A stretch of 64,000 bases of DNA from NCBI GenBank assembly GCA_029262795.1, contig JAJCYT010000018.1, forward strand, positions 3,762 to 67,761, in the 5' to 3' direction. Numbering within the stretch: the stretch's first letter is position 1; each line of letters begins with the position of its first letter. Shown one piece after another: positions 19,501-57,300 of the stretch. The translations under genes were made by a program, and so were the position numbers. The stretch is from Candidatus Fraserbacteria bacterium (lineage in GTDB: Bacteria; Bipolaricaulota; Bipolaricaulia; RBG-16-55-9; JAJCYT01). Under the pieces are notes generated by a model. It was not told the origin of the DNA. It saw only the letters and a program-made list of their open reading frames with translations, and made no database searches.

Positions 19501-19904
19501 CAGGCAAAGCGTTTGAACACCCTGTGACCATCGGCTTTATGTACATGCTCAAACTGGAACATATTGCGGATGAAAAGATTCACGCACGTTCCATTGGTCC
19601 ATACAGTTTAATCACGCAACAGCCGTTGGGTGGTAAAGCGCAACGCGGCGGTCAACGCCTGGGTGAAATGGAAGTGTGGGCGCTTGAGGCTTACGGCGCA
19701 GCTCACATCCTGCAGGAAATGTTAACCGTCAAGAGTGATGACACCCGCGGGCGCGTACAACTTTACAAATCCATCCTGAAGGGCGAGGACTTCCCACGCA
19801 TGGGGCTGCCCGAATCCTTTAAGGTGCTGGTCAAGGAGTTGCGCAGCTTGGGCCTCAGCGTCAAAGCCTACGACGACGACGACCGCGAATTGGACATTGA
19901 ATAA
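16545..19904 (+). CDS. rpoB: DNA-directed RNA polymerase subunit beta
   Basis: 1119 aa. Conserved RpoB blocks (GRYKVNKKLG-like and NMQRQAVPL). GAGAGGAG RBS. Confidence 0.97.
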
Positions 19905-38456: not shown

Positions 38457-39278
38457 TCAACGGTTTCCCAGAAAGGAACCCATCCCGATCCAAACAGCGA
38501 ACACGGTGAATAGGGCCACCTCTATTAAATCCACTTCGGCCAAGGTGGTGACCAGCACAAACAAAATCAGCATCACGGCAATTTTTCCCAACAGCAAAAG
38601 CGCGTCCACAATATGCCCACTTTCCCACGCTTCCTTGTCGGAACGCAGACTGAGGACAAAACTGCCCAGCAAAATGATTCCTCCAATCAGCAACATCATC
38701 CACGGTTGTTGATCTGCTGAAACATTGCTGATCACCCATTTGAATGCGGAAGGGGTGAAGAAAAGGATAATCAACGTCATCGCAGTGTCAATGGCATGCC
38801 AGAATGCGGCAGTCACCGGATCAGCCGATTGTCGGGCAGAGAATCCCCAACGCAGTGGGACATCACTTTGCTGTTGCCATTTGGGATAATCCTGCGGCAC
38901 AGCCAGAAACACCATTGCAGTGGAAAAACGCATCAGTTGGTAAGGAATCAGCACATAGAGAAAGGGGATGATGACCGACAAAAATTTGGCTGCGTCCGAA
39001 ATATGTTCCAGATCGACAAACAAATCATCCAGCAATAACGTGAAGCGAAACAACGACCAGCCCGAAAACCCAAATCCTAGTAACAATGATCCCCAGCCAA
39101 ACAGCACCACCCTTAAATTGAGATATTTTCCAATTTCAGCATCCCTGTCATACAAAGCTGAAAATCGACCCAATAAGGGATAACGCACCAACTGCACCAC
39201 CAATACCGCAACCGTAGACACCACGAACAAGCCGATGGCCAACCCAAACGGCACCCAGGCAAGATGGATGGGCGTCAT
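38457..39278 (-). CDS. Polytopic membrane protein, unknown function
   Basis: 273 aa, about 7 TM helices. Start overlaps the MBL gene stop (operon). Confidence 0.4.
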   Translation of the reverse strand: MTPIHLAWVPFGLAIGLFVVSTVAVLVVQLVRYPLLGRFSALYDRDAEIGKYLNLRVVLFGWGSLLLGFGFSGWSLFRFTLLLDDLFVDLEHISDAAKFLSVIIPFLYVLIPYQLMRFSTAMVFLAVPQDYPKWQQQSDVPLRWGFSARQSADPVTAAFWHAIDTAMTLIILFFTPSAFKWVISNVSADQQPWMMLLIGGIILLGSFVLSLRSDKEAWESGHIVDALLLLGKIAVMLILFVLVTTLAEVDLIEVALFTVFAVWIGMGSFLGNR

Positions 39279-40243
39279 GTCGCCTCGTAATAAATGATGT
39301 TTTCTGAGGTGCGCGTTTGCGCTTTTCCTTGATTCACCAGACAGTCCAAATGGCCCACAGCCTCGCTCATGCCCAAAAACTGTTCGGTGGCAGGCAGGTT
39401 GGGAAATAGTTTTTCCATCAGGCCAAAAGCAGTCAATGCTTCTTCTTTAAGCATGTCCAAAACTTTTTTGCTTCGTTTTTCCTGATGTAAAAAACTCTGG
39501 TCAATCACTCGTTGTGGATCGGTGCAAATGTTTCGATGACCGGAAAACACAACCTTTAAATCCAGACGATTGATTTTTTCCAAAGATTCCAAATACAAAA
39601 CCAAACTTTTCGGGCGCTCTGTTTCAGGCGGTTGTGGCATTTCTAAGAGTGGATTGGGCGTGATGCCATCAATAAAATGATCACCTGCAAATAGCCCTTG
39701 ATAGGTCGGCTCATAAAAACACAAAGAAGCCGGACTGTGTCCTGGTGTTTCCAGCACATCGAACTGAAGTGATCCAATCTGAATTTGGTCGCCTTCCACC
39801 AATGTGTCATCCACATCCACAGGAGGAGCCAACAATGAAAAACTTTTTGGAAACTCTGTGAGCATTTGAACCATCTGTGTTGGCATCCCCATCGACACTA
39901 AGAACTCTCCAAAATAATCCTGCTCGCGAAGGTAAAAGCCCTCAAAATCTTTAAGTTTTTCAACAGCATCTGGATGCGCAATCACTTTGCATTCACTGCG
40001 TCGTTTGACTTCCCCTGCCAAGCCAAAGTGATCCATATGCGGATGGGTAATTAACACCTGTTCAATATCTTCAATTTGATGCCCCAAATCGCTGAGTTGA
40101 GATTCGAGTGAAGCCAGCGCTTTTTCTGTGTACGGCCCCACATCAATCAATGTCAATGGCGGACCATCCAACAGATACGCATTGATGGCTCCCACCTGAA
40201 ACGGCGTTGGAATAGGCAGATGATGCACGCCAGGTATCTTCAT
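39275..40243 (-). CDS. MBL-fold metallo-hydrolase
   Basis: HPHMDH (HxHxDH) motif. ETPGHSPASL. 322 aa. Confidence 0.75.
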   Translation of the reverse strand: MKIPGVHHLPIPTPFQVGAINAYLLDGPPLTLIDVGPYTEKALASLESQLSDLGHQIEDIEQVLITHPHMDHFGLAGEVKRRSECKVIAHPDAVEKLKDFEGFYLREQDYFGEFLVSMGMPTQMVQMLTEFPKSFSLLAPPVDVDDTLVEGDQIQIGSLQFDVLETPGHSPASLCFYEPTYQGLFAGDHFIDGITPNPLLEMPQPPETERPKSLVLYLESLEKINRLDLKVVFSGHRNICTDPQRVIDQSFLHQEKRSKKVLDMLKEEALTAFGLMEKLFPNLPATEQFLGMSEAVGHLDCLVNQGKAQTRTSENIIYYEAT

Positions 40244-41790: not shown

Positions 41791-42052
41791 GTGCAACCTC
41801 CTCAAAAGTGTGTCTGCACCTACACCATAAAAACAATCCACTCAAATTGTCAATAGAGATGTACAAAACCCTCAAGGGGTAACCTTAATTTCCCCGTGAC
41901 GCGAGTTACATACGTTGGGGACACGCGTCCCTATAATCTCGGACAATACGGCGGCCAGAATTCTGTTTGTGGCCGTGGCTTTGGTCTTGCAGCTACCCAT
42001 AAGCGGCCAGATCAAATAATTGACCAAGCAACATAACCGAAGGAGGTTACTT

Positions 42053-44401
42053 GTGGTGGGAAAAGTAACGTTGAGTTTTCTCGTAGCGATTTTATTGTTT
42101 GCCAGCCCTAGCGTCTGGGCTTCTCAGAACGGGCCGGTTTTCTTTGTGGATGATGACAATCCGCCCAGCGACGACTGTGACGGTGACTTCCACTTTCATT
42201 CAATTGCAGCGGTGTTTGCCACGCTGAATAATCCCAATGCCTTTCCTAAATTGGACGAAAACGACACGGTTGTCGTTGATCCAGGGAATTATTCCACGTC
42301 GGTCACCTATGCTGCCGGCGAGTGTCAGGACATTTCCGCAAGCGCCATTGACATCTCTAAAAAAGGTGTGACGCTGGAAGCGCCTGAAGGCCGTGATTTG
42401 ACCAAGTTTGCAGGTCAGATCATCATCAACGCCAAAGAAGTGAAAGTGATTGGTTTGGACGTGGATGCCACGGGTCAGGCCAGCGCCTTTTTGGTGCTCA
42501 ACGACAACGTGTTGTTGGACGCCAACAAAGCCCACAACGCCAATGAAGCCGGTATTGTGGTCGACGAAGGCAGCGACAACGTCACCGTAACCAACAACGA
42601 AGTGTTTAATAACGGCACCGACGGCGTGTACGTTCGCGGCGACAGCGATAGCACCACCATCAGCGCCAACCAAATCCGTAGCAATGGCGCCATTGGCGTT
42701 CTTGTGTACGGTGCCAGCGATCGTGCGATTATTGAAGACAACCAGATCAGCCTGAACCAGAGCGAAGGTGTGAAGGTGCAGGATTCTGATTTTGCCGAAG
42801 TGTCAAGCAACACAGTGACCAACAATGCATTGGATGGCATTCGCTTTGAAGATGCCAATGACGGCACCATTACAGGCAACGTCATCAGCTCCAGCGGCGG
42901 TTACGGACTGGCCTTGGTGGATTCCGACAGCAACGAAGCCAGTGGCAACAGCACCACCAACAACGACGGTGGCGGCTTGGCCTTGCGCGGTAGCGAACAT
43001 GCATCCAAGCGTAATCTTATTTTACAAAACACCATCACCGACAACATTCGTGCCGGCAGTGAAGGCATCTTGCTTGAAGGCGATGTGACCAGCAACACGA
43101 TTCAAGGCAACGACATCAACAACAACAGCTTTGGGATTCGTTTTAAAACCCCAAGCAGCGGCGGTTCTCCAAGCAACAACACCATCGACAGCAACAACAT
43201 CCTGGGTTCCCCTGAAGATGGCATCGAAGTGTTGGGCAGCGAAGGCCGCAACACGATCAAAGGCAACACCTTGTCCGGCAACAACAAAGCGGGCATCCGT
43301 GTGCTCAATGATTCTGGTAATGATGAATTTAAGAACAACAAAATTTTCAACAACGGTCATCAGGGCATCCTGATCGATGGCAGCCCACGCAACACCGTGG
43401 AAGCCAACGAAATAACCAACAATGGCCGCGAAGGCATCGCGCTGACCAACGGTGCTTCCAACAACAACGTGCTGAGCAACCAGGTCAACGACAACCGCAG
43501 CCAGGGCATCGCCGCAAGTGCGGGTGCCAACGGCAACGACATTGAATCCAATACCGTCAGTGGCAACCGCCAAAACGGCATCCTGCTCGATGGTGTGGAA
43601 AAAGTGGACGTGCGCGGCAACACCGTGGAGCGCAATGTGGCTCGCGGCCTGTCGATTGAAAATGGTAACGGCATTGACGTGGAACACAACACCATCAGCC
43701 GCAACAACACCGGCGGTGTGTGGATTCGTTCCTCTGTTGAATTGGACATTGAACAAAACGACATTTTTGACAACAGCGAATTTGGCTTGGCTGTGGACCA
43801 GGAATGGCCTGCACCTGCCACCATGAGCGACAACTTGAAAGCTGACCGCAACTGGTGGGGCGCTTCCCGTGGCCCTGCAGGTGTGTACGAAGGCAACGGT
43901 AATGCTGTGTTGGGCGTCCATGTGGAACACATTTTCCCTTGGTTGACCGCACCATTCGATTACCTCACCTTGGGCACCACCAGCGGTGAAATCTTTGACG
44001 ACTTTGGCGCAGGCAACCAGTCCGAATTTGTTGCCATGGACAAAGCCGACATTGATGTGAGCTTCTTCAACGTCGACTCCGAAGAAGACGGCATGGTGAT
44101 TGTGTCGAAATTCCAAGATGACAAACCTGAGCATTTGGGTGAGTTGCCTGGCGCCCTTAAAGCCATCAGCTTGCTGGTCAGCGGATTGAACTCCGGTGAC
44201 ACCGTGCTCAGCGTCCAGTTCACTGAAGAAGAACTGAACGGCGCCAACAAAGACACCCTGTCTCTCTACTATTGGGATGGCAACGCTTGGGTGCAGTTGA
44301 GCGGTCGCAGCTTCTCCAACGTGAATCTGGTTGAAGGTGAACTTTCTGTAGAAGCCTTACGTAATGGCGTCACGCTTGCCATTGCGCCAGGTGGTAATTA
44401 A
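42053..44401 (+). CDS. Secreted right-handed parallel beta-helix repeat protein (PbH1/NosD-like), paralogue 1 of 3
   Basis: AGGAGG RBS then GTG. Signal peptide MVGKVTLSFLVAILLFASPSVWA. FFVDDDNPPSDDCDGDFHFHSIAAVF. About 20 Asn/Gly-rich beta-helix coils (N.I.NN...GI). RNWWG..RGPAGVYEGNGNAVLGVHVEHIFPWL. C-terminal LSLYYWDGNAWVQL. Confidence 0.7.
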   Translation: MVGKVTLSFLVAILLFASPSVWASQNGPVFFVDDDNPPSDDCDGDFHFHSIAAVFATLNNPNAFPKLDENDTVVVDPGNYSTSVTYAAGECQDISASAIDISKKGVTLEAPEGRDLTKFAGQIIINAKEVKVIGLDVDATGQASAFLVLNDNVLLDANKAHNANEAGIVVDEGSDNVTVTNNEVFNNGTDGVYVRGDSDSTTISANQIRSNGAIGVLVYGASDRAIIEDNQISLNQSEGVKVQDSDFAEVSSNTVTNNALDGIRFEDANDGTITGNVISSSGGYGLALVDSDSNEASGNSTTNNDGGGLALRGSEHASKRNLILQNTITDNIRAGSEGILLEGDVTSNTIQGNDINNNSFGIRFKTPSSGGSPSNNTIDSNNILGSPEDGIEVLGSEGRNTIKGNTLSGNNKAGIRVLNDSGNDEFKNNKIFNNGHQGILIDGSPRNTVEANEITNNGREGIALTNGASNNNVLSNQVNDNRSQGIAASAGANGNDIESNTVSGNRQNGILLDGVEKVDVRGNTVERNVARGLSIENGNGIDVEHNTISRNNTGGVWIRSSVELDIEQNDIFDNSEFGLAVDQEWPAPATMSDNLKADRNWWGASRGPAGVYEGNGNAVLGVHVEHIFPWLTAPFDYLTLGTTSGEIFDDFGAGNQSEFVAMDKADIDVSFFNVDSEEDGMVIVSKFQDDKPEHLGELPGALKAISLLVSGLNSGDTVLSVQFTEEELNGANKDTLSLYYWDGNAWVQLSGRSFSNVNLVEGELSVEALRNGVTLAIAPGGN

Positions 44402-44539
44402 GACCTGCCTGCAAAACCGATTCAATGCGAACCGGATTTGCAAGGTGGTCACTGGATAAGCAAACGAAACCTTTACGGTTAATGTTGCTCGATTTAGACC
44501 TGAAGCCTAGGTTTAAAACCGATAAATTACAACCACCTT

Positions 44540-44576
44540 CCCCAGAGGGCGTGTGCGCCAGCACCGCCCTCTGGGG
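44540..44576 (+). terminator. Stem-loop (12-bp perfect stem) between beta-helix genes 1 and 2
   Basis: ccccagagggcg-tgtgcgccagcac-cgccctctgggg followed by atcccacccccatagtttt. Confidence 0.4.
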
Positions 44577-44606
44577 ATCCCACCCCCATAGTTTTGGAGG
44601 AGAGGC

Positions 44607-47600
44607 GTGATGAAGGGTTTGGCTTATATCTGGAAGCAACGTTGGGTTTTGGGTTGGGTGCTCATCCTCTTGGGCGCATTCTTAGGGCAGGCCGAAGACG
44701 AAGGCAACACCTTCTTCATCGATCCCAGCTTGTCACAGGAAGAAAACAACGACGGCGATTACCACTTTAGTTCAATTCAGGCAGCGTTTGCAGCAGATCA
44801 GCATCCGCACGTCAACGAAAACGACTCCGTGGTACTCAAGCCGGGAACCTATCAAGAAAATGTTGAGATCAACATTCCAGGTGTGATGGTGCGCGGCGAA
44901 GGCGGCATCTCACAAACCCACATCATCGGCAGTGTGATTTTGTCCGAAGATCAAATCACGCTTCGCGGAATTCATATCGATGCCAGCAACCAGCCCAATG
45001 GTCTGGTAATTCAGGAAGAACTGGCCCGCATCGAAGATGTTTACATCGATCACGCCAGCGACAACGGCATCTTTATCGACGAAGCCTCACGCACACACCT
45101 CAATCGCGTCAAGCTCAACAACCACGGCGCAGCCGGTTTGTTGGCTGTGGAAGCCGATGGACTTCAGGTTGAAAACAGCCAGTTCCAGGCCAATGGCGGC
45201 GCGGGCATCTGGCTGCAATATTCTGAAAACGCATCTATCGAACAAAGCATGTTCAGCCTCAACGGCACGGCTGGTGTTCAGCTCGAAAACAGCAACAACA
45301 GTGTGTTTAGAGACAGCGTGTTTCAGAACAATGGCCAGTATGGCTTAGTGTCGATGGACAGCACACAAAACACATTTAGATTTAATGAATTTAACCACAA
45401 CGGTACCTTTGGTGTGGTGTTTGAAAACAGCGCCCGCTCAACCTTCATCCGCAACGAAGTTCACGACAACGGCGTGGAAGGCACCCCGGCAGGCGGCCTC
45501 ATGCTTGTCGGGCGCAGCGCTGAAAACAAGATTGAAGACAACGACATTCGTGGGCACAGCGCCATTGGTGCAGCAGGCATTTACCTCACAGGCAGTGCCA
45601 ATGCCAATCATTTTGTGGACAACATGATTGTGATCAATCAAGTGGGTGTGATGCTCAGCAACGAAGCAGGCCAGCCAGAGACCAATTTGTTTGAACGCAA
45701 TCATATCGAAGGGTCTCACGGCGCTGGTGTGTTTTCTCAGGGGCGCAACAATGCTTACCGAGAAAACACATTGACACACAACAACGGTCCAGGCTTTTCA
45801 CTCGATCAGGCTGAAGGTGAACTGGTCGAAGCAAACAACATTACAGGCAACAGCGACGCAGGCGTGTATGTAATGCACAGCACACAAGTGAAACTTATTG
45901 CCAACTCGCTCATAGATAATGTCAACGGTTTTGTCGCTGAAGACCTGCAACAGAGCGAACTCCAAGGGAATCAGATTCAGGATAACTTTGGGAAGGGATT
46001 AAAAGTGCTTCGCGGTGGCGCTCTTAAAGTGATTGGCAATCAGATTACTGGCAATCGAGAAGATGGGGTTTGGCTTGAGAACATTGATCAAGCCACCATT
46101 TCTGAAAACATCTTATTCGAAAACCAGGCCGCCGGCGCACAGCTCGAACACAGCAACGGCATTGAGATTTATGAAAACAGCTTTGAAGGCAATCAAGGCG
46201 GTTTGGCCGTTTGGGGTGGCTCTGAAGTCACCGCACAATTCAATAATTTTTTAAACAACACATCTTATGGCTTATGGGCCATGGACGAGGAAAACCTGGA
46301 CGCCCGCTACAACTTCTGGGGCAGCGACCAGGGGCCCAGCGGCGCATCGCCAACCATGTTGTCCTATGACAACGATTTGGTTCGAGAAGTGTCGGTGGAA
46401 AACTTGTTCCCGTGGTTACCTGAGCCAATTTCCTCTATCAACCAGCCTTCGGTCAAGGGGTGGTTTTTCGAACAAACCCCTGCCCAGTCTGTGGTGCACG
46501 CACCCAGGGCAGGGGTTTTGATTGACTTTGAATCAGTCAATTTCAACAAAGGGTGGCTCACGGTGTTTATGCCAATGCAGCGCCCTGACAATGCACCCCC
46601 ATTGGGCACGGAATTTCAACACTTTTCTGTTTCCAGTGGCGGCAAACTCGATGGCACTGTCAAGCTGACCGTGCCATATGATGAAGCAGCATTGGACGAA
46701 ACAATTCCTGTCAGCGACCTGCGCCTGTTCCTCTGGGACGGTGTCGTCTGGGAAGAACTTCCTGGCGAAGTCGACATGCAGGAACACACCTTGTCCGGCG
46801 AAGTCGATGCCAGCCGTTTGCAAAAGGCCACATTAATGTTGGCCTGGGAACAACAGCGTGAATTGAGCAAAGCGGCCTGGGTGTTGACACAGCCCACATG
46901 GATCATGGGTGAAGGATTGAAGGTTCGCCTCAGCGATCCAGACAAGAATTTGAACGAAGATCTTCAGGACCGCTTGATGGGTGCAATTGAAATCATCGAC
47001 CCAGAAGGCCAGTCCATGCTCATGCTCGATGCGTACGAAACGGACAACGCCAGTGGCGTGTTTGAAGTTCAGATTCCAGACAATGCCTTTGAATGGTTGA
47101 TTGAAGACAAAGATTATCAACTGCTCTACGTCGATCCCGAATCACCACAGGATCGCCGTGAAACACAGGTGAAATTGTTGGCACGATCTTCGTTCGTGAT
47201 CGACCCAAACGCTGAAAGTTTGGAAGACATGGACTACGACTTTGAATACAAAACCTTTGACGGCCTGCGCCAAGGCAGTCCATCGCTTAACGCCAATGAA
47301 ACAATTTACTTAAAAGCCGGTCAGCACGAAGGCGATTGGATTATCGAGCAACCTGGCGTGGTGGTGGCCGGTGAGTTGGGTGCCATGTTGAATGGTTCAC
47401 TCACTCTCGCAGGCGACGACATTGTGGTCAAAGGCTTGGCGATTGACAGCCACAGCGACTTGGCCGTGACGGTCAGTGGCAGCAACGTAACGTTTGAAAA
47501 CGTCAGCATCATCAGCCAGGGTGAGGTGGCCTTATCGATCGAGGCACCAAACTTTGTGATGATGTCTTCTCGTATTGAAGGCGAAAATGTTGGCATCAGC

Positions 47601-48257
47601 ACTTATTACGAATTGGAATTTTCTAGCAACATAGTAACGGGTACACCCGCGATCATCAATCATTCTAATGGTGTGCTTAAGGTTGAGCAGAACTGGTGGG
47701 GGTCCTCGGATGGACCCGGAGAAGATGTGCAAGGTCTTACACAGGAGGACATCTTCCCCTGGTTGCTGACCCCCCCAGTCAGCTCGTTTGAAGCGGCACG
47801 CGTGAAGGGCACCAACTGGCAGCATCCCACTGCTGTGGAGCTATTGAGTGACATGGGGCGAGCATTGCTCGAGCTCAATTTCTCCCAATTGTGGACAGGT
47901 ATCTTACAGCTCTTCGGTCAAGGAGGCGGTAGCCTGTTCGTTCTATCTCCAGATTGGTCCCTTCACGTGGGAGCCTCTAATCCAGGCGGTGACATGATTA
48001 TCCAAAGCGATGATCAAGCACCTGAATGGATATCCAAGGACGCCCAGCGTTTCGGCTTGTGGCTCACGCCCCTGCGAAACACAAAATTGGAATTGGTCTA
48101 TAACGGCGATTACATCCCAAGTGCCTGGTGGTATGACAATGGTAAATGGGTGAAGTTAAAACCGACCTTGAAGGGACAAGGAGCCTGGTTTGTGTCGCTC
48201 CCACGTCTCACTGCTGAGACCCCATTGCCCTTGTGGCTGGCCGTGTCTCACCCGTAA
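44607..48257 (+). CDS. Secreted beta-helix repeat protein, paralogue 2 (internally duplicated two-module version, 1216 aa)
   Basis: Signal peptide. FFIDPSLSQEENNDGDYHFSSIQAAF. Two modules, each ending with a WWG..GP.G...PWL motif (aa about 560 and about 1030). LRLFLWDGVVWEEL motif. Confidence 0.7.
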   Translation: MMKGLAYIWKQRWVLGWVLILLGAFLGQAEDEGNTFFIDPSLSQEENNDGDYHFSSIQAAFAADQHPHVNENDSVVLKPGTYQENVEINIPGVMVRGEGGISQTHIIGSVILSEDQITLRGIHIDASNQPNGLVIQEELARIEDVYIDHASDNGIFIDEASRTHLNRVKLNNHGAAGLLAVEADGLQVENSQFQANGGAGIWLQYSENASIEQSMFSLNGTAGVQLENSNNSVFRDSVFQNNGQYGLVSMDSTQNTFRFNEFNHNGTFGVVFENSARSTFIRNEVHDNGVEGTPAGGLMLVGRSAENKIEDNDIRGHSAIGAAGIYLTGSANANHFVDNMIVINQVGVMLSNEAGQPETNLFERNHIEGSHGAGVFSQGRNNAYRENTLTHNNGPGFSLDQAEGELVEANNITGNSDAGVYVMHSTQVKLIANSLIDNVNGFVAEDLQQSELQGNQIQDNFGKGLKVLRGGALKVIGNQITGNREDGVWLENIDQATISENILFENQAAGAQLEHSNGIEIYENSFEGNQGGLAVWGGSEVTAQFNNFLNNTSYGLWAMDEENLDARYNFWGSDQGPSGASPTMLSYDNDLVREVSVENLFPWLPEPISSINQPSVKGWFFEQTPAQSVVHAPRAGVLIDFESVNFNKGWLTVFMPMQRPDNAPPLGTEFQHFSVSSGGKLDGTVKLTVPYDEAALDETIPVSDLRLFLWDGVVWEELPGEVDMQEHTLSGEVDASRLQKATLMLAWEQQRELSKAAWVLTQPTWIMGEGLKVRLSDPDKNLNEDLQDRLMGAIEIIDPEGQSMLMLDAYETDNASGVFEVQIPDNAFEWLIEDKDYQLLYVDPESPQDRRETQVKLLARSSFVIDPNAESLEDMDYDFEYKTFDGLRQGSPSLNANETIYLKAGQHEGDWIIEQPGVVVAGELGAMLNGSLTLAGDDIVVKGLAIDSHSDLAVTVSGSNVTFENVSIISQGEVALSIEAPNFVMMSSRIEGENVGISTYYELEFSSNIVTGTPAIINHSNGVLKVEQNWWGSSDGPGEDVQGLTQEDIFPWLLTPPVSSFEAARVKGTNWQHPTAVELLSDMGRALLELNFSQLWTGILQLFGQGGGSLFVLSPDWSLHVGASNPGGDMIIQSDDQAPEWISKDAQRFGLWLTPLRNTKLELVYNGDYIPSAWWYDNGKWVKLKPTLKGQGAWFVSLPRLTAETPLPLWLAVSHP

Positions 48258-48278
48258 ATTTTTAAAGGACAAATAAAG

Positions 48279-50774
48279 TTGGAAAGGTCTGTGATGACCG
48301 CAAACAGCACTGACCGGCGGAGCGGCAACGCTGCGCTGGTCGCTGGTTTTTTTATCTGCTTTTGTTTGGGTGTGATGTTTGCTCCTGTGATAGGGTGGGC
48401 GTCGCACGACCGTCCCGTGTTTATTGTGGACGTCAACAATTCTCCAGACGATGATTTTGATGGCGATTATCATTTTCATTCTCTTAGCGCCGCACTCAGC
48501 GAATTTCCCAATCCAAAAGAAGATGAAACCATCAAGCTGGCCCCAGGGGTTTACAACGAATCCATCGTCCTCGATGTCGAAGGGCTGACGCTGGAAGCCA
48601 CAGGCGAGTTGGATCAAACCATTATTCAGGGCCAGATCACACTGGCTGCCAAGCGCATTCACGTCACTGGAATCAGCGTGGATGCAACCGCGTTGTCATT
48701 TGGCTTAAATGTGCTTGAAGACAAAACAGTGATTGAAAAGATGAATATTTTTGGTGCCGAAACCGGCATCCTGCTCAACACAGGCATGCCCATTAAAGAT
48801 GTGTCACTGACGGGCAATCGCATTTATCAAAACACAATTGGTATTGATGCTCAGGATCTGCGCTATGCTCAGATTCAAAGCAACGTGTTTGAAGACAACC
48901 GTCAAGTGGGCGGACGATTTGAGGCCGTTTACCAGGTACAGTTTTCGAGCAACATCTGGCGCTCCAATGAACGCGGTCTGATTCTGCGAGACAGTCGTGA
49001 ACTGGAATTGCTTCATGAAATATTTTCCAGTAATCGCCACTACGGGGCGCGTTTAAACGCGGTGGACATCGTGACAATCAATCACGCGGTGGTCGAATCC
49101 AACCGCGCTGTGGGGTTGCGATTGGATGATGTAAAAGACAATCGCATTTTAAATTCTCTCTTTCGCCACAATCACCAAGCGGGTTTGCGATTGGAAAACC
49201 ACAGCCAGCAAAATGTTTTACAGAACAACACGTTTGAAGCCCACACCGAAACGGACACCGCCGGACTGTGGGTGCTTGGGCCTGTGTACGACAATGTGAT
49301 TTTGAACAATCAGTTTGCAGACAATTGGATGGGCATCAAGCTGAGCAAGAAGAACGGCGCACCGGCCAGCAATCGTTTTGAGAACAACACCATTTCCAAC
49401 TCAATCGGTGATGGCCTCTACGTCGAAGCCAGCGAAGGCGACAATATTTTCAGGAAAAATGTTCTCAATCGAAACAATCGCCACGGCATCTATCTGGCAG
49501 GTGGGGATGATCAGGTCATCGATAACCGTATCGAATATTCCGGTGCGGAAGGCATTTGGGCCGATGGTGCAATTGGCCTGATTCTGCGCGGCAACACATC
49601 CATGTCCAATCAGAGCAGTGGTCTGAAATTAAGTGGTGATGGAATTAATTATTTGATTACCGAAAATAGTTTCGAACAGAATTTTCAACATGGATTGGTG
49701 ATTGAGTCAGGCTCAGATTTCCGTATCGAACACAATGAAATCAGCCAAAACCATCAACATGGCGCGATGGTTGGCAAGGTGAACAATCTGGAATTCAATC
49801 ACAACACCATCCAAAACAATGGTGAGTTGGGCATACTCATCGACCAAACTGAAAAACTTGATGCCAAAGGAAACACCATCTCACTCAACCAGGCAGGCGG
49901 CGTGCTTGTCCAATCTGGCATTGATCTGGACTTGGAAGGCAACGCCATTGTGGATAATCTTCATATGGGCCTGCGCCTGGAAGATGGCGAACTGATCGCC
50001 AAACGCAATTGGTGGGGCGATGTGCTTGGTCCTGCCGGTGTGTTTGAAGGGCGCGGCAATGCGGTCCTGGGCACACACCTGGAGCAAATTGTGCCCTGGC
50101 TGCCGGATGAACCGCAACGCATTGTTTTGTCCTCAGCCGATGCTGAAATTCTGGATGCCATTGGCCGCCAGGAAACCATTGAACTCGACCTGTTGGATCG
50201 CGCCGGTGTGCTCCTGGAGTTGTCCGAACTGGGCGTGAATGATGACGGAAAGCGTGTGCCAATTTCATTGGGCGCAATTTTGCTGTCTAAGTATCAGCAG
50301 ATAGAATTAGAAAACATTCCAACCCTGCCAGACACCTTGGCGCTTTACAACGTACAACTCAGTGGATTGAGCAACGGCGTGGCCAATCTGCTGGTCGATG
50401 TGGCTGAGTACAGCAACCACAATTTAAATCAACTCGCTTTGTGGTATTGGGATGGCGAACAATGGCTCGGCCTTCCGGGTCGCTTACGTGAGGCAGCCTT
50501 GCAAATGACAGGTGAAATTCGAGCAAATCTTCTAAAACCTGGATTGATTGCACTGGCCCCTCGCAGCAGCGAAGCACGTGAGTTTATGGCGCCTGTTTCA
50601 TCTACCAGCAATAGTGTTTCTGGTATGAACCTTGGCCGAAGTTCTCAATCAGCGTTTCGTTCAGAAGATTTTTCTTTGTTGTTTTTTGCGCTGATTGCTT
50701 TAGGCATTGGCAGATTGATTCGAAAATACCCTCATATCCGCATCAAACTTCTTGATCTGATTCAATTCAGATAA
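48279..50774 (+). CDS. Secreted beta-helix repeat protein, paralogue 3, with C-terminal hydrophobic helix + basic tail
   Basis: FIVDVNNSPDDDFDGDYHFHSLSAAL. NWWGDVLGPAGVFEGRGNAVLGTHLEQIVPWL. LALWYWDGEQWLGL. C-terminus EDFSLLFFALIALGIGRLIRKYP. Confidence 0.7.
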   Translation: MERSVMTANSTDRRSGNAALVAGFFICFCLGVMFAPVIGWASHDRPVFIVDVNNSPDDDFDGDYHFHSLSAALSEFPNPKEDETIKLAPGVYNESIVLDVEGLTLEATGELDQTIIQGQITLAAKRIHVTGISVDATALSFGLNVLEDKTVIEKMNIFGAETGILLNTGMPIKDVSLTGNRIYQNTIGIDAQDLRYAQIQSNVFEDNRQVGGRFEAVYQVQFSSNIWRSNERGLILRDSRELELLHEIFSSNRHYGARLNAVDIVTINHAVVESNRAVGLRLDDVKDNRILNSLFRHNHQAGLRLENHSQQNVLQNNTFEAHTETDTAGLWVLGPVYDNVILNNQFADNWMGIKLSKKNGAPASNRFENNTISNSIGDGLYVEASEGDNIFRKNVLNRNNRHGIYLAGGDDQVIDNRIEYSGAEGIWADGAIGLILRGNTSMSNQSSGLKLSGDGINYLITENSFEQNFQHGLVIESGSDFRIEHNEISQNHQHGAMVGKVNNLEFNHNTIQNNGELGILIDQTEKLDAKGNTISLNQAGGVLVQSGIDLDLEGNAIVDNLHMGLRLEDGELIAKRNWWGDVLGPAGVFEGRGNAVLGTHLEQIVPWLPDEPQRIVLSSADAEILDAIGRQETIELDLLDRAGVLLELSELGVNDDGKRVPISLGAILLSKYQQIELENIPTLPDTLALYNVQLSGLSNGVANLLVDVAEYSNHNLNQLALWYWDGEQWLGLPGRLREAALQMTGEIRANLLKPGLIALAPRSSEAREFMAPVSSTSNSVSGMNLGRSSQSAFRSEDFSLLFFALIALGIGRLIRKYPHIRIKLLDLIQFR

Positions 50775-50789
50775 TTTTTTAGAGACCTA

Positions 50790-50946
50790 TCTACTTGAGA
50801 AAGCAAATCATTATGATGGATAAAAGCTCTAATCCCCCAACCCCCTTTACATAAAGGGGGCACAATCCGACTGCGATGGTCTGTTCTTTGATAAATATCG
50901 TTATCTCTGAATGAAATATTGGGATTGGGTTGCTTTCTCAAGTAGA
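50790..50946. repeat. MITE-like element: 17-bp perfect terminal inverted repeats (tctacttgagaaagcaa) flanking about 125 bp that contain a CCCCCAACCCCCTTT-acat-AAAGGGGG palindromic repeat
   Basis: IR at 50790-50806 and 50930-50946. A degenerate direct duplicate of the internal segment (about 70% identity) lies just outside at 50951-51000. Confidence 0.45.
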
Positions 50947-51123
50947 CAGTCCTCTTACATAAAGAGCGCACGATGGGGATGCGATGTTTGTTCTTTAGGA
51001 TGTAGCGTCATTCTTTTTGAGGGTTTTAGTGCCCAGTATTTATATCTCAAAAAATATTTACTACTTAATCTTTCGGCTAGAATAACGTTATGAACTGAAG
51101 AGCAACCTCAAAAAATCAAACTG

Positions 51124-51169
51124 TAGCCCCCTTCAGATGAAGGGGGTTGGGGGATTTGAAGCTTTTAAC
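51124..51169. repeat. G/C palindromic repeat element, near-identical copy of 7957-8001
   Basis: tagCCCCCTTcagatgAAGGGGGttgggggatttgaagcttttaac. Confidence 0.6.
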
Positions 51170-51346
51170 CCTTTTAATATATGCCTTTGCTTTTTCAAAT
51201 GAATACATCTTGTTTTTTAACCGAGAGAGAGATGGACATACAGAAGTTTAAAACCTCTGTATGTCCATCGAGAAATGAAGAGTGTAGTGAAGAACGACCG
51301 CTGAAGACGAAAGCCTTACAGCAGTCGCTCTCCCACTCTTTTTCAA

Positions 51347-54300
51347 TTAGCTTACATTGACTGTTACTGTGGCGGTTGACGTCCCACCCTGACCATCGCT
51401 GATGGTGTAAGTAAAGGTGTCTTGACCCGTAAAGCCGCCATCAGGTGTGTATGTGATGGTGTTGTCACCATTGGCAACCACACTCCCGTTGGCCGGATCG
51501 CTTGTGCCTGTGATGGTTAAAATATCACTGGTATCAGGATCGCCATCGTTGACCAGCACGGTGATAGTCACGTCCGTTTCTGAAGCCGTGTCCACACTTG
51601 CTGTGTCGTCCATCGCCGTTGGATCATCGTTGATGCCATCTACGATAATGGTTAAAGAGATCGTGTTGCTGATGCCACCTTTGTCGTCTTGAAGTGTGTA
51701 GGTAAACGAAGTCACATCCGATTCACCAAAGGCCAGATGATCAAAATCGCTGCCAGGATCAAACTGTACCTGATCACCCGCGATGCTCACCGTACCACCG
51801 TTGTCAGTGACACCAATGCTTTCGATGCTGATCACATCAGACAAATCAACATCTTCCGTACCATTGATGACGCTGATTAAAGTGATGGTATCTTCATCCG
51901 CAAAGCCCGTGTTCACAGTTGCAATTGGATCATCGTTGACGCCGTCCACTATAATGGTGACCGTGCCGACGCTTTGTTCACCAAATTCATCTTCCATCGT
52001 GTAATCAAACGATTCGATGCCAGTTTCACCATCCGCCAGGGATTGGAAACTGAAGGATGGCGTGTAACTTAATGTGCCATCCATGTTGTCGATCAGCGTG
52101 CCGCCTTGATCGGGCGCATCTGCACTGACAAACAGGAGGATGGCACCATTATCCACATCGGTGTCGTTGAACAAAAGATCAGATGTTAAGAGATTGAACG
52201 CCACATCGTCTTCGTTGACGCCCAACACATCGTCAGGCATTGCAAGCGGCGCGTCATTCACACCCGTGACCATCATGGTTACTGTGGCGCTGGATGTCCC
52301 CCCGTTGCCATCTTCGATGTCGTAGCTGAAGCTGGTGAAACGGGATTCGCCCTCAGCCAAATCGTCAAAATCCACATCTGGATCAAATTCAATTTGGTTG
52401 CCGCTGAGGTTGGCAACACCGCCATTGTCCGGTGTGCCGACACTCGTAATTGTGAGAGTGTCGCTGGTGTCAGGATCGGTGTCGTTGAAAACCGCATCAA
52501 TCAAGACAATCGTGTTTTCATCTGTGGTTTCGCTTGGATCGTCCATTGCGGTAGGATCATCATTCACACCACTGACGGTCACCGTCACACTGGCAGTCAC
52601 GGTTTCCGTGCTATCGGTGACATCATAGGTAAACGTGGTGGCTCGGAATTCACCCACAGCGAGATCATTAAAATCTGCACCTGGATCAAACTCAACCTGA
52701 TTACCATTGACACTGGCACTGCCGCCGTTGTCCGGCGTGCCCACAGCATCGAGGCTCAAGCTGTCGCTCGTATCGACATCAGTGTCGTTACTCAAAACGC
52801 TGAGCAGGGCAATCGTGTCTTCGTCCGTGGTTTCACTCGGATCGTTTTGAACAACCGGTGTGTCGTTGAGGCCAGTGACTTCTACTGTCACTGTGGCCGT
52901 GTCCGTACCGCCGTTGCCATCTGAAATGTCGTAAGTAAAGCTGGTAGATCTCATCTCGCCATCGTCCAGATCCTGGAAGTCCAGGCCCGGATCAAACAGG
53001 ATTTGATCACCGCTGATGTTGGCGCTGCCACCATTGTCAGGCACGCCCACTGTTGCAATGCTGATCGTGTCCAAGTCGAGATCACTGTCGTTGAACAACA
53101 CGCTGATGAGCAGGTTGTTGTCTTCGTCTGTCGTTTCGTTTGGATCATCCACCGCATCAGGGTCGTCATTGATTGCATTCACCGTGAGGTTCACTGTGCC
53201 CACCACCACGCCGCCGAAGCCATCGCTCACCGTGTAGGTGAAACTGTCTGCGCCGTTGGTGTTGAGTGTTGGCATGTAGGTAAAGCTGCCATCGATGGTC
53301 ACATTTACCGCACCACCTTGAACACTAAGCGCATCAAAGCCGGTAACGGTGAGGCTGTCGCCGTCGTTGTCACTGTCGTTATTCAACAAGCCAGTGGCTG
53401 CATCGACAGTCAGTAACGTGTCCTCATCTGTGGCGTAATCATCCCCAACAACTGTCGGTGGCTGGTTGGTGTCGTTGACTGTGATTTCAAAACCAGCCAC
53501 ATCGGTAAACTCGCCATCGTCACAACTCACCTGATTGCTTGGGAAATTCACAGACAAGTCAGGTCGCTGCACCACCGAGAACGTTGGGGTGTAGGTCAAC
53601 GTGCCTGTGCCGTTGCCATTGGCATTAAAGTTTGCGCCAGGTGGCAAGTTGGCGGCCGTAACTGTGAGATTGGCACTGAGCGTGTCCACATCGGTACAGG
53701 TGGCGACAAAACTCAACAAGTTATTTTCTGCAATGGTCTGATCGGTAATGGCCGTCATGACCGGCGGATCGTTAACCGGCGTGACGGTAATCGTCACACC
53801 GGCGGTTGCCAAACCGCCATGGCCGTCATCGACCTGGAATACAAAGCTGTCACCGCCATTGTAGTTAAGGTCTGGTGTGTAGGTGGCTGTGCAATTTGCA
53901 TTGACCACCAAGACACCATGCGTAGGATCTGTGTCAGACGTACAGGTCAACGGATCGCCATCTGGATCGTTGCCGCTCAGTGTCAACGGAAGCACGTTGT
54001 CTTCGGCCACAAACACCGTCTGACCAAAGGCCACAGGGTTGCGATTGAGAACATCAATCGTAATTTGTGCCGTGTCGCAGGCGCCTGCCAAATCACACAC
54101 GTCGTAGTTGAATACATCCTGACCGACAAAGTCGAAGTCTGGGGTGTAGGTCAACTGGCAACCATTGAACACCAAAGTGCCGTGCTGTTCGCCTGGCGTA
54201 CCTTCGCTACAGGTGAGCGTATCACCTTCACGACTGATGTCCACATCGCTGACAGGCAGGATCAAAATCACATTCGTGTCCTGCAACGTGCTGGCGCTGA

Positions 54301-57300
54301 TGTCGTCTGCATTCGGCGGATCATTGACTGGATCAACCTGAATTGTGATCACAGCCGTGTCAGTTTCGCCATTGCCATCGTCCACCTGGAAGGTAAAGCT
54401 GGTGTTACCGTTGAAATCCTGAACATCCGGCAAGTATTCACAGTCAGGCAAGACCGTACAGGTGAGCGTGCCTTTCAAGCCAGCGGTACTCACAATGCTA
54501 AACGTCAGTGTGTCCAAGTCCACATCGGAGCCAGTCAGCGTAATGGCCAAAGGCGTCAGGCTGTCTTCGTTAATTGGACCAACAGTCTGAGGATCAGCCA
54601 CTGGCGGATCGTTGACTGAAATCACAGTAATGTCAATCGTGCCGGTTGCGCTGCCGCCAAAGCCGTCTGTCACTTCGAAGTCGAAGCTGACTGGACCGTT
54701 GAAATTCAACGGCGGATTGTAAGTACAGTTTGGAATGTTCGTACAGTCCAGGCCGGTAAGTGGTGCACCTGTGAGGGCAAAGCCCAAACTGTCCAAATCA
54801 AAGTCATTCGCACTAAGCACGATAGGAATACCCGTATCTTCGTCCACTTCCAAAGTTTGGTTGTTTGGAATAGGATCACGGTTCAAGTCATTGACTGTTA
54901 CCGTGTGGGTGTTGTTCACCGTGTTTACACCATCACTGCAGGTCAATTCGATACCTGTAAAGTCCGACGTTGTGATTGGGTGTGCCAATGTTGCATATGT
55001 TGGCTGATAGAAGAATGCGCCTGCACCATTGCCAGAATCCACAAACAAACCAAAGCCTGGTGTGTTCGTGCTGTCCAGCAACAACAACGCAGAATCTGTG
55101 TCCACATCGGTACACGTCACTGGCACGGTGAGGTTGTTTTCTTCAACCACGGTTTGATTTGGCACCACGGTCAACACAGGGGCATCGTCCACGGCAATCA
55201 CCACGATGGTGATGGTGGCGGTGTCACACTTCGGATCGACAAAATCGTCGTCGCAGATGGTGTAGGTAAAGCTGTCCACACCATTGAAGTTGAGCATCGG
55301 TGAGTACGTGAGCTTGTTGCCCAGTAACGTCACCGTGCCACCCTGGGCACTGACCGCATCAAAGCTGTCGATGGAAACCCCATCGCCATCAGGATCGCTG
55401 TCATTGCCCAATGGAAAAATATCCAAATCGGTGTCTTCATTCACGTTGTCGCTATCGTTCTTAGCGTTTGGCGCGCTGTTGAACACGGTGATATTCACGG
55501 TGTCCTGCGCACAGAAACTGGCATTGCACACTTCATAGATAAAGCTGTCCACGCCCACAAAATCTGGGTTTGGCGTATAGGTGCAGTCTGGGTTGGCACT
55601 ACAATCCAACGTGCCATTATCCACATCATCAATGATGCTGTAGCTGGTACCGCCAACAGAAGTCAAAGTAAAGAACTTTGCCACATTCTTTGGTGTGGAC
55701 TGATCTGGGGTTAATGGCAACGGTGTGTTACCACCAAGGCTTTCAATTTCGAGCATCACTGTGCCTACGGCTGTACCGCCAAAGCCATCGTCCACCAAGA
55801 AGGTGAAGCTGTCATCTCCATTAAAACCGGGGTCTGGCATGTAGGTGGCAGTACAATCCGAATTCACTGTTGCCACACCGTCACTGGCCTGAGTGTTCAG
55901 GCTACAGGTCAATACATCGCTTTCAGGATCGGAGCCAGTCAACACCAGATTGAGTAAGGTATCGGCTGGGGTAAATGCACTCTGATCATCTGCACTTGGG
56001 TCACGATTGACGTCGGTGACGGTGATATCGAAGCTCTGCATCACCACTTCACCAAACTGATCGTCACAGGTGACGTCCGCTGTAAACACCTCATCAGGTG
56101 CAGGAGCGACTGGCGGATGGGCCACCACGTCAAAATCGGGTGAATACGTCAGTGAGCCACTGCCATTGCCACCATCCACAAAATTGGCGCCAGGAGGCAG
56201 GTTGTTGACTGTGATCACTGGGTTTGGATTTTCCAAATCATCACACGTAATGACCAATGCCAATGTCGTGTTTTCAGGCACGATCTGATTGGCGATTGGA
56301 TCCAACACAGGTGGATCGTTGACGTCGCCCACCAAAATGTTGACCACAGCCTGGTCCGAGCCATTGCCGTCAGTAACGGTATAACCAAATCGGTCAATGC
56401 CAGAATAATTGGCATCTGGCGTATAAGTGACCGTACAGGTACCAGGATCAAACACAGTGGTACCGTGGGCCGGATTGGCCACCACGGGGTTACATGTGAG
56501 TGAATCATTCTCTGGATCAGACACGTCCAGCACAATCACTTTTGAATTATCTTCGGTCACATTGACAAACATATCGTTGGCAACCGGAGGATCGTTCACG
56601 GGGTTCACCGTGATGTTGACTGTGGCTGTGTCTGTGCCGCCATCGCCATCGTCCACCTCAAACACAAAGCTGTCGCTGCCAGTGAAGTTGGTATCCGGCA
56701 AGTACGAACAGTTTGGCATGGACGAACAATCCAGCGTGCCATTGGCAGGTGCGGTGGTGATGGTGTAAGTCACGGGATCACCATTCACATCGAAACTGGA
56801 AAGTTCCATTGGCACACTCAAATCTTCAAGGGTTTCGAGTGTGATGTTGTTGGCAACGGGGGGCGTGTTGGTGACTTCAATCGTCACCGTTCGTGTGAGA
56901 CACACACTGAACTGGTCACACACTTCGTAATCGTAGCTGTCCGTGCCCACAAAGCCCACATCATGGGTGTAGGTGACGGTGTTACAGCCGTTTTGATTCA
57001 GGGAACCATCCGTTGGTCCAGAGACGATGGTGCAGGTCAGCACGTCGCCTTCGTTGCTTAAATCGGCATCTCCCACTGGCAGGTTGGTCACCACTGGGGT
57101 CGGGTTGAAGTGATTCTGTTCCACCGTTTCATTCACGTTGCTGGCCGTTGGCGGATCATTGACGGCAGTGATGTTAAACGTCACTGTCGCTGTATCGAAG
57201 CGCCCCGTGCCATCAGTGATGGTGTAGGTGTAAGAATCCGTACCCGTTTTGTTTGAATTCAAGGTATAAGTACATCCATTTGGATCGCAGTTCACAATCC

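Follow-up and report, generated by a model that had tools for sequence, protein, structure and literature searches.

A recurrent array of three paralogous beta-helix proteins in Candidatus Fraserbacteria and its possible place in the cell envelope

Described relatives

The right-handed beta-helix is a fold common to many enzymes. Among solved structures, the AlgG and AlgE4 epimerases and the PL6 lyases are the best fold and sequence matches of the three proteins described here (A, B and C), which are nevertheless merely 10–16% identical to them. With the NosD (PF05048) and CASH-PbH1 (PF13229) proteins, the trio shares a three-faced right-handed helix, coils of 22–24 residues with Asn/Gly ladders and periplasmic export. 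The profile match to the NosD structure 7O0Y is partial: the NosD chain has 436 aa, whereas the proteins of the trio have 780–1216 aa and ∼ 20 coils, score below the NosD family cut-off, are not part of a nos operon and carry an extra C-terminal beta-sandwich, followed in C by a predicted membrane anchor.

Two groups of archaeal proteins are also similar. Methanogens encode non-nos 'NosD-like' proteins that are NosD by domain only, have no nos genes nearby and have been suggested to play a role in the envelope (PMC12904285). The trio resembles them in being annotated as NosD by domain alone away from nos genes but comes from a different lineage, and a paralogue operon is not described in that work. 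The second group comprises surface proteins with the PGF-pre-PGF domain, which, according to Haft's NCBIfam description, reportedly comes from archaeal surface proteins and precedes a C-terminal anchor. A NosD domain-containing protein of Methanolobus (P0033) has the same order of parts as C, namely a beta-helix, a beta-sandwich with the motif L.LY...G..W..L, a linker, a transmembrane helix and a basic tail. Unlike the archaeal PGF-pre-PGF surface proteins, the proteins studied here come from a bacterial host and form a conserved array of two to three paralogues; their domains miss the TIGR04213 model directly, and the C tail has neither a PGF motif nor a match to a sorting model.

The gene array and the architecture of its products

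In the window (the whole 64,000-nt stretch of DNA analysed here), the first-pass annotation described three consecutive genes on one strand with products of 793, 1216 and 831 aa, all of which were found again in the list of open reading frames (Table 1). The 793 aa of gene A are counted from its earliest TTG (42020..44401). The true start is the GTG at 42053, the coordinate that the annotation had given, which lies 6 nt downstream of AGGAGG and yields a product identical to a called public protein (P0054). Genes B and C probably start at ATG 44610, giving 1215 aa, and ATG 48294, respectively. B is 40% identical to P0068 along its full length and the C orthologue P0057 is 70% identical.

Table 1. 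Coordinates of the genes and sequence features of the array
Feature	Position	Strand	Description
Gene A	42053–44401	+	782 aa; soluble-type exported beta-helix protein without anchor, stops directly after the C-terminal domain
A, putative signal peptide	42053–42121	+	MVGKVTLSFLVAILLFASPSVWA, cleavage before SQ; hydrophobic segment; model pLDDT < 50
A, N-terminal cap and ∼ 20 PbH1 coils	42122–43834	+	DSSP of the model; coil stack and count
A, C-terminal cap	43835–43945	+	LKADRNWWGASRGPAGVYEGNGNAVLGVHVEHIFPWL; motif conservation
A, C-terminal beta-sandwich	43946–44398	+	151 aa, ..LSLYYWDGNAWVQL..; AF2 pLDDT 91, pTM 0.86
A–B hairpin	44540–44576	+	Perfect, GC-rich; z-score −7.0; in the structured A–B intergenic region 44402–44606
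Gene B	44607–48257	+	1216 aa; full module, ∼ 110-aa region and truncated second module
B, first module	cap 46311–46418; C-terminal domain 46419–46856	+	Signal peptide, N-cap and ∼ 20 coils before the cap
B, region between modules	46857–47186	+	∼ 110 aa
B, truncated second module	helix 47187–47690; cap 47691–47765; divergent last domain 47766–48254	+	
Gene C	48279–50774	+	831-aa ORF, membrane-anchored type; cap 50007–50102, C-terminal domain 50103–50564
C, specific tail	50565–50771	+	Ser-rich linker, hydrophobic helix FSLLFFALIALGIG (∼ 50664–50720), basic end RLIRKYPHIRIK..; hydropathy scan

Signal peptides had been assigned to all three proteins, an assignment upheld on inspection by eye and in a hydropathy scan. 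The N-terminal segments of A and C are strongly hydrophobic and the putative core in B (WVLGWVLILLGAFLG) did not reach the threshold of the scan. Ala-X-Ala-like putative cleavage sites are present in A (VWA↓SQ), B (GQA↓ED) and C (GWA↓SH), and the WA↓S(H/Q).GP junction is conserved among the A orthologues. All three proteins are presumably exported through the Sec pathway. A Tat signal came into question because Arg-Arg pairs occur in C and, if A is read from its earliest TTG, there too; it was not adopted because the Arg-Arg codons of A are its Shine–Dalgarno sequence and the orthologues do not have the pair. In C, the Arg-Arg pairs (TDRRSG) leave the Tat route formally possible.

The N-terminal block of A, GPVFFVD..N..DD.DGD.HFHSI..A, contains a strand and helices, and in the AlphaFold model it supplies the first strand and helix, from which the beta-helix starts; the counterpart of this motif in B is loose (FFIDPSLSQEENNDGDYHFSS). 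In the AF2 model of A (pLDDT 87.7), the helix runs without interruption up to a junction, beyond which lies a separate beta-sandwich. Some 20 Asn/Gly-rich coils had been estimated, and we counted 20 in A, each of 23–24 residues, regular, uniform and without long loops. Pfam Beta_helix (PF13229) matched A, B and C with E values of 1e-66, 2.5e-75 and 3.7e-51 (224, 252 and 173 bits against a curated cut-off of 25.9), NosD was also matched, and the TIGR03804 repeat scored 63–133 bits (cut-off 19.45). The proteins are real and uncharacterised, but otherwise unremarkable among the widespread beta-helix proteins of the NosD/CASH type. Among 14 A-type sequences (34–88% identity), nearly all conserved helix positions are G/N/S/D ladder and turn residues.

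The NWWG..GP..PWL block, whose N, W, G, GP, G and PWL residues are invariant in 11 sequences, is placed by the model between the last coil and the separate C-terminal beta-sandwich. The model supports the proposal that this block and the N-terminal one are caps or domain boundaries. As had been noted, the motif blocks are unannotated: none matched Pfam even at E ≤ 10, and we found no Pfam or NCBIfam model for the NWWG block. All three conserved blocks occur in A, B and C as claimed, but B fits loosely, its first cap reading NFWG..GPSG with an insertion and without EG.GNAVLG. The motifs had been taken for those of an uncharacterised family, but they are not family-specific: the NWWG cap closes NosD-type helices of many unrelated bacterial and archaeal proteins, and it follows the Beta_helix/NosD regions of the unrelated P0013, P0017, P0040, P0077 and P0085.

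The C-terminal domain of ∼ 150 aa with its shared motif is present as described and folds as a beta-sandwich in the model. Neither Pfam nor NCBIfam matched the domain of A, and at E ≤ 1 the TIGR04213 HMM (cut-off 28 bits) did not directly match this domain in the window proteins. A profile of the cap plus the domain found P0093 (E 9e-17) and P0097 (E 1.5e-15), the matched regions of which pass TIGR04213 with 37 bits, and hhalign aligned the domain with PGF-pre-PGF over 117 columns (97.7%, E 1.6e-12). On these profile comparisons, the domain is a remote homologue of archaeal PGF-pre-PGF (TIGR04213/IPR026453). A word-indexed homology search with the last 194 aa of A alone returned nothing; the exhaustive profile search succeeded. 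When the cap-plus-domain profile was run against the PDB sequences, no match had an E value below 0.09. A Foldseek search of PDB with the domain gave nothing significant (best E 3e-3), a match to a GAIN domain (4dlo_B, probability 0.87, TM 0.46) was too weak for use, and the two significant matches in BFVD were both unnamed phage proteins.

Protein B had been described as two complete modules. Its second module (residues ∼ 861–1216) has a clear NWWGSSDGP..FPWL block and a weak Beta_helix match (E 0.0024, ∼ 6 coils), so that its helix is truncated, and hhalign comparisons of the last domain of B with the shared C-terminal domain reached probabilities of 3% and 0.3%. We reject the description because homology between these two domains is unsupported. 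Two NWWG caps are found in the B proteins of the window and of loci L001 and L004; in the B protein of L002, the motif search found just the second.

The predicted C-terminal helix and basic tail are confined to C-type proteins; A-types have none, and a scan of the window for tail-bearing ORFs returned C alone. Most C-types have both parts (L008_2, L009_2, P0057, P0060, P0064, P0065, P0067 and P0069–P0072), and the tails loosely follow the pattern [DE][FLG][SAP]L[LWI]G..L.L.GLGR[LV].R. The tails of L002_C, L004_C and P0066 are short, hydrophobic and devoid of basic residues, an observation that speaks against the reading favoured below. As judged by the criteria for exosortase, archaeosortase or sortase substrates, C has the helix and the basic cluster but no match to a signature model, and none of 10 C tails matched an NCBIfam sorting domain at E ≤ 10. 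The same succession, from the domain through a Gly-rich linker to a transmembrane helix and a basic tail, occurs in the small proteins P0118, P0123 and P0129, which are unrelated. Of the three proteins, C is the one predicted to be membrane-anchored.

Age, recurrence and surroundings of the array

Pairwise alignments of A, B and C extend along the full length of the proteins, beyond the Asn-rich coils and far above chance, with identities of 24–32% (A versus C, 31% over 792 columns, E 4e-102, the best value; A versus B, 26%, E 2e-62). The three conserved blocks are kept in eight more homologues, down to 38% identity. The observation of a paralogous beta-helix trio is therefore confirmed, and the interpretation that the first-pass annotation placed on it is partly supported. 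A recent local expansion of the family is contradicted by the recurrence of the arrays and by the identity levels, as A, B and C differ more among themselves than the A-type orthologues, which form one clade in the tree, do between lineages (39–43% identity). A, B and C represent three paralogous types that are old and have been passed on vertically; for B and C, orthology between lineages rests on gene position and architecture and is not settled by the tree.

Arrays of the A-B-C, A-C or A-B kind recur in genomes of Fraserbacteria/Bipolaricaulota in which the A protein is merely 35–50% identical. The A-B-C order was found again at loci of 38–41% identity and is kept in L001, L002/3, L004/5 and L015, L008/L009 have A-C arrays and L014 has an A-B array. 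Spacing is tight, with 15–36 nt between B and C and ≤ ∼ 45 nt between A and C at the two-gene loci. The A–B hairpin is unique within the window, has no canonical U-tract and matched no Rfam family. Its flanks are nearly identical in L001, and hairpins of different sequence occupy the same position in L014, L002 and L004; there are none in the A-C loci.

The close family is small, with ∼ 20 clusters at 50% identity in a search space of 1.84 billion representatives, and none of them has an informative name, which agrees with its description as uncharacterised. It is also patchy, since these few clusters compare with at least 120 RpoB relatives listed from the same clade.

The compared loci share no conserved neighbourhood beyond one MBL-fold gene. 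A functional tie of the trio to the MBL-fold or AMP-ligase genes upstream of it was rejected as unsupported because of their divergent orientation and because a different gene intervenes in different lineages. Downstream of the trio and convergent with it lies the gene for a giant protein of 3919 aa with Big_9/cadherin repeats. The reported adjacency of the array to a giant adhesin is correct for the window, but not as a general feature, since the lineage of the window is the only one in which it was seen.

The RpoB protein of the host is 66% identical to those of named Bipolaricaulota/Fraserbacteria members, and RpoB together with the NusG insertion domain points to the Thermotogae-sister clade. 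Outer-membrane attachment systems of the Thermotogae type (Omp-alpha/Omp-beta) have been described in this clade in a preprint. In a cell with an outer membrane, the 'surface' of such proteins may really be the periplasm.

Possible roles and what they would mean

We favour, with a probability of roughly 0.5, the view that the trio are non-catalytic, envelope-associated rods, old paralogues of which C would be anchored and A free, with expression tuned by the hairpin. Each protein would form a rigid periplasmic or surface rod, ∼ 10 nm long if ∼ 20 coils are stacked at 4.8 Å each, that could serve in structure, spacing or ligand binding. The linker, transmembrane helix and basic tail suggest that C is tethered to the cytoplasmic membrane with its rod pointing outward. 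A would be the abundant subunit, free or associated with the others, B would contribute an additional truncated module, and the strong hairpin behind A may hold the expression of B and C below that of A. A fixed three-part complex is unlikely because the composition of the array varies (A-B-C, A-C or A-B).

The first-pass annotation had also proposed a carbohydrate-active role, and secreted polysaccharide lyases, C5-epimerases or glycoside hydrolases with a CASH/pectate-lyase-like fold, diverged in substrate specificity, would account for the best structural matches, which comprise PL6 alginate lyases, the AlgE4, AlgE6 and AlgG mannuronan epimerases, DFA-IIIase, GH87 and tailspike depolymerases. 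These matches are generic, coil on coil with TM ∼ 0.3, and a weak NCBIfam match to AlgG (NF038177) reached 28 and 19 bits against an equivalog cut-off of 700. The DPH[DE] motif, which is catalytic in mannuronan C5-epimerases, is absent from 12 of 12 A, B and C sequences. Across the paralogues, the helix has neither an invariant charged or aromatic residue nor a conserved polar or charged patch. Membership of PL6 or another CAZy beta-helix family would call for a conserved catalytic Lys/Arg and Ca-binding constellation in a substrate groove; the likeness to these families is one of fold, and no residue of that type is invariant in all three paralogues. In beta-helix enzymes the substrate cleft is usually formed by loop insertions, which the uniform coils do not have, and there are no glycan transport or utilisation genes among the annotated neighbours. 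Positive support for a lyase or hydrolase is thus lacking, and we consider an enzymatic role unlikely. The A-types conserve K118, K128, D136 and H161 in their first coils; this cluster is found in A-types only and a small active site is possible there.

A surface-layer role had been suggested as well. Location at the surface or in the envelope fits the trio better than an enzyme does, but anchoring of the SLH S-layer type is absent. In one form of this proposal, the proteins would be building blocks of a lineage-specific ordered layer, S-layer-like or associated with a toga-type outer envelope, anchored by C through a new exosortase/archaeosortase-type signal. The window proteins are acidic (in A, 110 D+E versus 46 K+R), the operon has a hairpin after its first gene, the C tails share their loose pattern, and archaeal PGF-CTERM surface proteins show a parallel order of PGF-pre-PGF-like domain, linker, transmembrane helix and basic end. 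Against this, Pfam and NCBIfam scans detected Beta_helix and NosD families only, with no SLH or known S-layer domain, the sorting-signal models did not match the C tails, no second window protein has a C-type tail, the annotated neighbours include no exosortase gene and the family is patchy, which together make such a layer quite improbable. We are just as doubtful of a hetero-oligomeric array of A, B and C rods held on the inner membrane by C, which would be an undescribed periplasm-spanning or surface structure with a new sorting signal in the loosely conserved C tail ([DE][FL][SP]LLG..L.L.GLGR..R) and a stoichiometry set by the hairpin.

The last alternative casts the trio as periplasmic maturation factors of the NosD type, which assemble a metal centre together with an ABC transporter. 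It is suggested by the matches to PF05048 (E down to 4e-59) and 7O0Y (E 9e-10), but is hardly credible for proteins of twice the size of NosD that score 101, 100 and 80 bits against the TIGR04247 cut-off of 300, given that nosZ, nosF, nosY and nosL are absent from the annotated parts of the window and from L001–L005, L014 and L015 and that PF05048 routinely matches non-nos beta-helix proteins (PMC12904285).

Whatever the function, two facts are of use for annotation. At the C-terminal end of NosD-type beta-helices, the NWWG..GP..PW block recurs as a cap for which neither Pfam nor NCBIfam has a model. Bacteria have relatives of the archaeal 'PGF-pre-PGF' domain, which likewise adjoin a predicted C-terminal membrane anchor. 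The trio also illustrates that matches to the PF05048 'NosD' model should not be counted as evidence of N2O metabolism. If the trio do act as non-catalytic envelope rods, they would be a clade-specific envelope component of the Bipolaricaulota/Fraserbacteria, a little-studied group known solely from metagenomes; beyond that, they are ordinary uncharacterised members of a very large fold family.

Gene starts, paralogy and predicted fold

The three consecutive same-strand genes proposed in the first-pass annotation (A, B and C) were all recovered as open reading frames, and the coordinate it gave for A, GTG 42053, is the true start: AGGAGG lies 6 nt upstream, orthologues start with MVGK, and the resulting 782-aa protein has the same sequence as P0054, which public data already list as a called gene product. 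The starts of B and C are probably ATG 44610 and ATG 48294. In each protein a hydrophobic segment at the N-terminus leads into an Ala-X-Ala-like site (VWA/SQ, GQA/ED and GWA/SH in A, B and C, respectively); these were assigned by eye, and the segment of B falls below the threshold of the hydropathy scan. Arg-Arg pairs are found near the N-termini of C (TDRRSG, region 48279–48420) and of the long TTG form of A (NRRRLL, region 42020–42060). In A, it is these codons that make up the Shine-Dalgarno sequence (AGGAGG) of the GTG start, which makes a Tat signal improbable; the TDRRSG pair of C could be part of one.

A aligns over its full length with both C (31% identity, E = 4e-102) and B (26% identity, E = 2e-62). 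The similarity is thus not restricted to the Asn-rich coils, and the suggested paralogy stands. The only Pfam matches were Beta_helix (E = 1e-66, 2.5e-75 and 3.7e-51 for A, B and C) and NosD, and we found none, even at E ≤ 10, for the N-terminal 160 aa, the junction or the C-terminal regions. The helix of A comprises 20 coils of 23–24 residues with a G-(I/V)-x-(V/L) .. N .. N ladder. The three conserved motif blocks, matched only loosely in B, recur in eight more full-length homologues with identities down to 38%, so neither of the two outcomes named in advance as refuting the first-pass annotation was seen. An acidic loop precedes HFHS (D-D-D-F-D-G in C, 48420–48440, residues about 48–56; S-D-D-C-D-G in A) and, at equivalent positions in A, B and C, resembles a DxDxDG calcium-binding loop; it is not kept in the lineage of loci L002 and L004 from other genomes.

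In the AlphaFold2 model of A (mean pLDDT 87.7), the beta-helix opens, after the signal peptide, with a first strand and two short helices contributed by the conserved N-terminal block, and it runs unbroken to residue ∼ 600. The NWWG..GP..PWL block (the cap) sits in a lower-confidence junction (pLDDT 55–71) before a separate beta-sandwich, which reaches pLDDT 91 and pTM 0.86 when modelled alone. This layout bears out the earlier reading of the blocks as caps or domain boundaries. Neither the cap nor the sandwich domain had a match by sequence among solved structures, or a convincing one by fold.

Features of the array and its surroundings in the window
Feature	Coordinates	Strand	Remarks
tRNA-Tyr, tRNA-Thr, tRNA-Trp	11079–12826		
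EF-Tu	11412–12662		
NusG	13058–14176	+	extra 'NusG_add' insertion domain PF18298
RpoB	16545–19904		1119 aa
CPBP/Rce1-like intramembrane protease	35159–35749	-	PF02517; by correspondence with L001; ∼ 6 kb upstream
MBL-fold (Lactamase_B) gene	39275–40243	-	upstream of A
ORF A	42020–44401	+	793 aa from earliest start codon
A-B gap	44402–44606		205 nt
Hairpin in A-B gap	44540–44576		perfect, 12 bp, GC-rich
ORF B	44607–48257	+	1216 aa from earliest start codon
ORF C	48279–50774	+	831 aa from earliest start codon
Spacer, C to giant gene	50775–51346		570 nt, AT-rich
Giant protein	51347–63106	-	3919 aa; Big_9/Cadherin_4/Cadherin_5-type repeats; N-terminal signal-like segment; convergent with C

Tails, modules and the reach of the cap

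A-type proteins end straight after the beta-sandwich, whereas C-types continue through a linker into a hydrophobic tail. In most C-types (window C, L008_2 and L009_2 from other loci, and the public database proteins P0057, P0060, P0064, P0065, P0067 and P0069–72) the tail is a helix with basic residues after it; L001_C has a matching tail, FSLVFLGMIALGIRRLMQKYP, just under the hydropathy-scan threshold, and the hydrophobic tails of L002_C, L004_C and P0066 are short and lack the basic end. These tails share a loose pattern. They match no NCBIfam sorting-signal model, and C is the only window ORF that carries one.

B had been described as containing two complete modules. Its residues about 861–1216 do include an N-cap-like segment, a weak Beta_helix match (∼ 6 coils, E = 0.0024) and, after this short second helix, a clear second cap (NWWGSSDGP..FPWL). 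Two caps are also present in the middle genes of L001 and L004 and in P0068; in the L002 B the motif search found the second cap only. The last ∼ 160 aa, however, resemble the shared C-terminal domain only in a WWYDNGKWVKL stretch, and profile comparison did not support homology (probability 3% and 0.3%), so that 'complete' was an overstatement. In several distant relatives (the C-terminal ends of P0084, P0082, P0089, P0090 and the L002 and L004 B proteins), the second cap is followed by a shared motif of helical character, LL(R/E)L(D/N)F..(A/S)W..(I/L)..LF. Window B has it too (LELNFSQLWTGILQLF), a possible sign of another unmodelled element restricted to B-like proteins.

Searching a profile of the cap and domain against 1.84 billion representative proteins yielded 490 matches at E ≤ 1e-3, 84 at E ≤ 1e-10 and 17 at E ≤ 1e-30. 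Roughly 20 are true family members; ranking after them are other beta-helix proteins with both cap and domain (P0077, P0078, P0084), cap-only matches, sometimes several per giant protein (P0085, P0114), and domain-only matches, among them multihaem cytochromes and small proteins. The cap-bearing proteins scanned (P0085, P0138, P0142, P0077, P0078, P0084, P0013) all have Beta_helix, usually with NosD or DUF1565, and the distant matches P0013, P0017 and P0040 also contain NWWG..GP...G.G..V...F.PW. The cap is therefore no signature of the A/B/C family: it closes the C-terminal end of NosD-type helices in general and has no model of its own. As for the domain, P0093 and P0097 score above the cut-off of NCBIfam TIGR04213 in their matching regions (PGF-pre-PGF domain; 37 bits, cut-off 28), and these regions align with the window family's domain in hhalign (97.7% probability, E = 1.6e-12, 117 columns); the window domain itself does not match TIGR04213. 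The small proteins P0118, P0123 and P0129 follow the C-type order of domain, Gly-rich linker, transmembrane helix and basic tail.

Age and surroundings of the array

The window RpoB is 66% identical to that of Candidatus Acetothermia, Bipolaricaulota and Fraserbacteria, and its nusG lies in a tRNA/EF-Tu/nusG/rpoB cluster. The PF18298 insertion, known from Thermotoga NusG, fits in this setting a Thermotogae-sister placement of the host.

Close homologues of A are few and come from the same clade as the host. The A-B-C order is found in L001 (A 88–89% identical), L015, L002/L003 (41%) and L004/L005 (38%); L008 and L009 have A-C only and L014 has A-B only. A-type orthologues form one clade in the tree, and paralogues are only 24–32% identical compared with 39–43% among A orthologues across lineages. 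By this comparison the duplications are older than the split of these lineages, and the array, conserved far beyond the window's lineage, is not the recent local expansion once proposed.

A giant repeat protein does adjoin C, as claimed, with comparable genes in L001 and L015, but the Fraserbacteria loci lack one, and no lineage other than the window's own has it next to the array. Short inverted G/C runs in the intervening spacer (e.g. cccccaaccccctttacataaaggggg and cccccttcagatgaaggggg) may be bidirectional terminators. All lineages checked (window, L002, L004 and L015) have the MBL-fold gene upstream, on the other strand; what separates it from A is an AMP-dependent ligase in the window's lineage but an NYN-domain protein in L002 and L004. 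CPBP/Rce1-like proteases are used by some sorting systems; we found no link between the one in the window and the C-type tail.

The A-B gap folds far better than shuffled sequence (z = -7.0). The flanks of its hairpin are nearly identical in L001, where they are more conserved than the flanking genes, and hairpins of different sequence occupy the same position in L014, L002 and L004; A-C loci have none at the corresponding place. The hairpin matches no Rfam family and is not followed by a canonical U-tract.

Rod or enzyme

By score, motif, conservation and neighbourhood, A, B and C are neither NosD nor AlgG and probably belong to no defined CAZy family. Scores stayed below the cut-offs for NosD (TIGR04247; 80–101 bits vs 300) and AlgG (19–28 vs 700), none of 12 A/B/C sequences has the DPH[DE] motif, and no locus examined has nos or glycan-utilisation genes. 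The best solved-structure matches by fold and sequence (PL6 alginate lyases, AlgG/AlgE epimerases, DFA-IIIase and tailspikes; 10–16% identity, TM ∼ 0.3) reflect generic beta-helix similarity. The helix has no charged or aromatic residue that stays the same in all the paralogues. Among 14 A-type sequences, its conserved positions consist almost entirely of Gly/Asn in the ladder and Ser/Asp in turns, apart from a small cluster in the first coils (K118/K128/D136/H161). Together these results favour non-catalytic rods, although a small active site may still be present.

We infer the cell location of these proteins, their association and the role of the hairpin as follows. A, B and C would be exported beta-helical rods, A unanchored, B with an extra short module, and C anchored in the cytoplasmic membrane through its C-terminal helix, the pre-PGF-like domain lying beside that membrane. 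B and C lie close together, as do A and C in two-gene loci, which suggests co-expression; the hairpin could hold the expression of B and C at a lower level than that of A. For Bipolaricaulota and Fraserbacteria, a preprint reports Omp-alpha/Omp-beta outer-membrane attachment systems of the Thermotogae type (10.1101/2021.05.31.446380); were the host to have an outer membrane of this kind, the rods might sit in the periplasm and not at the surface of the cell.

The three proteins belong to the very large parallel beta-helix kind (PbH1/CASH, 'NosD-like'), many of whose members outside nos operons have no known function (e.g. PMC12904285). Their order of parts is closest to that of archaeal surface proteins combining a NosD helix with PGF-pre-PGF; what is specific to A, B and C is a conserved array of two or three paralogues, one of them anchored, in a little-studied bacterial clade.
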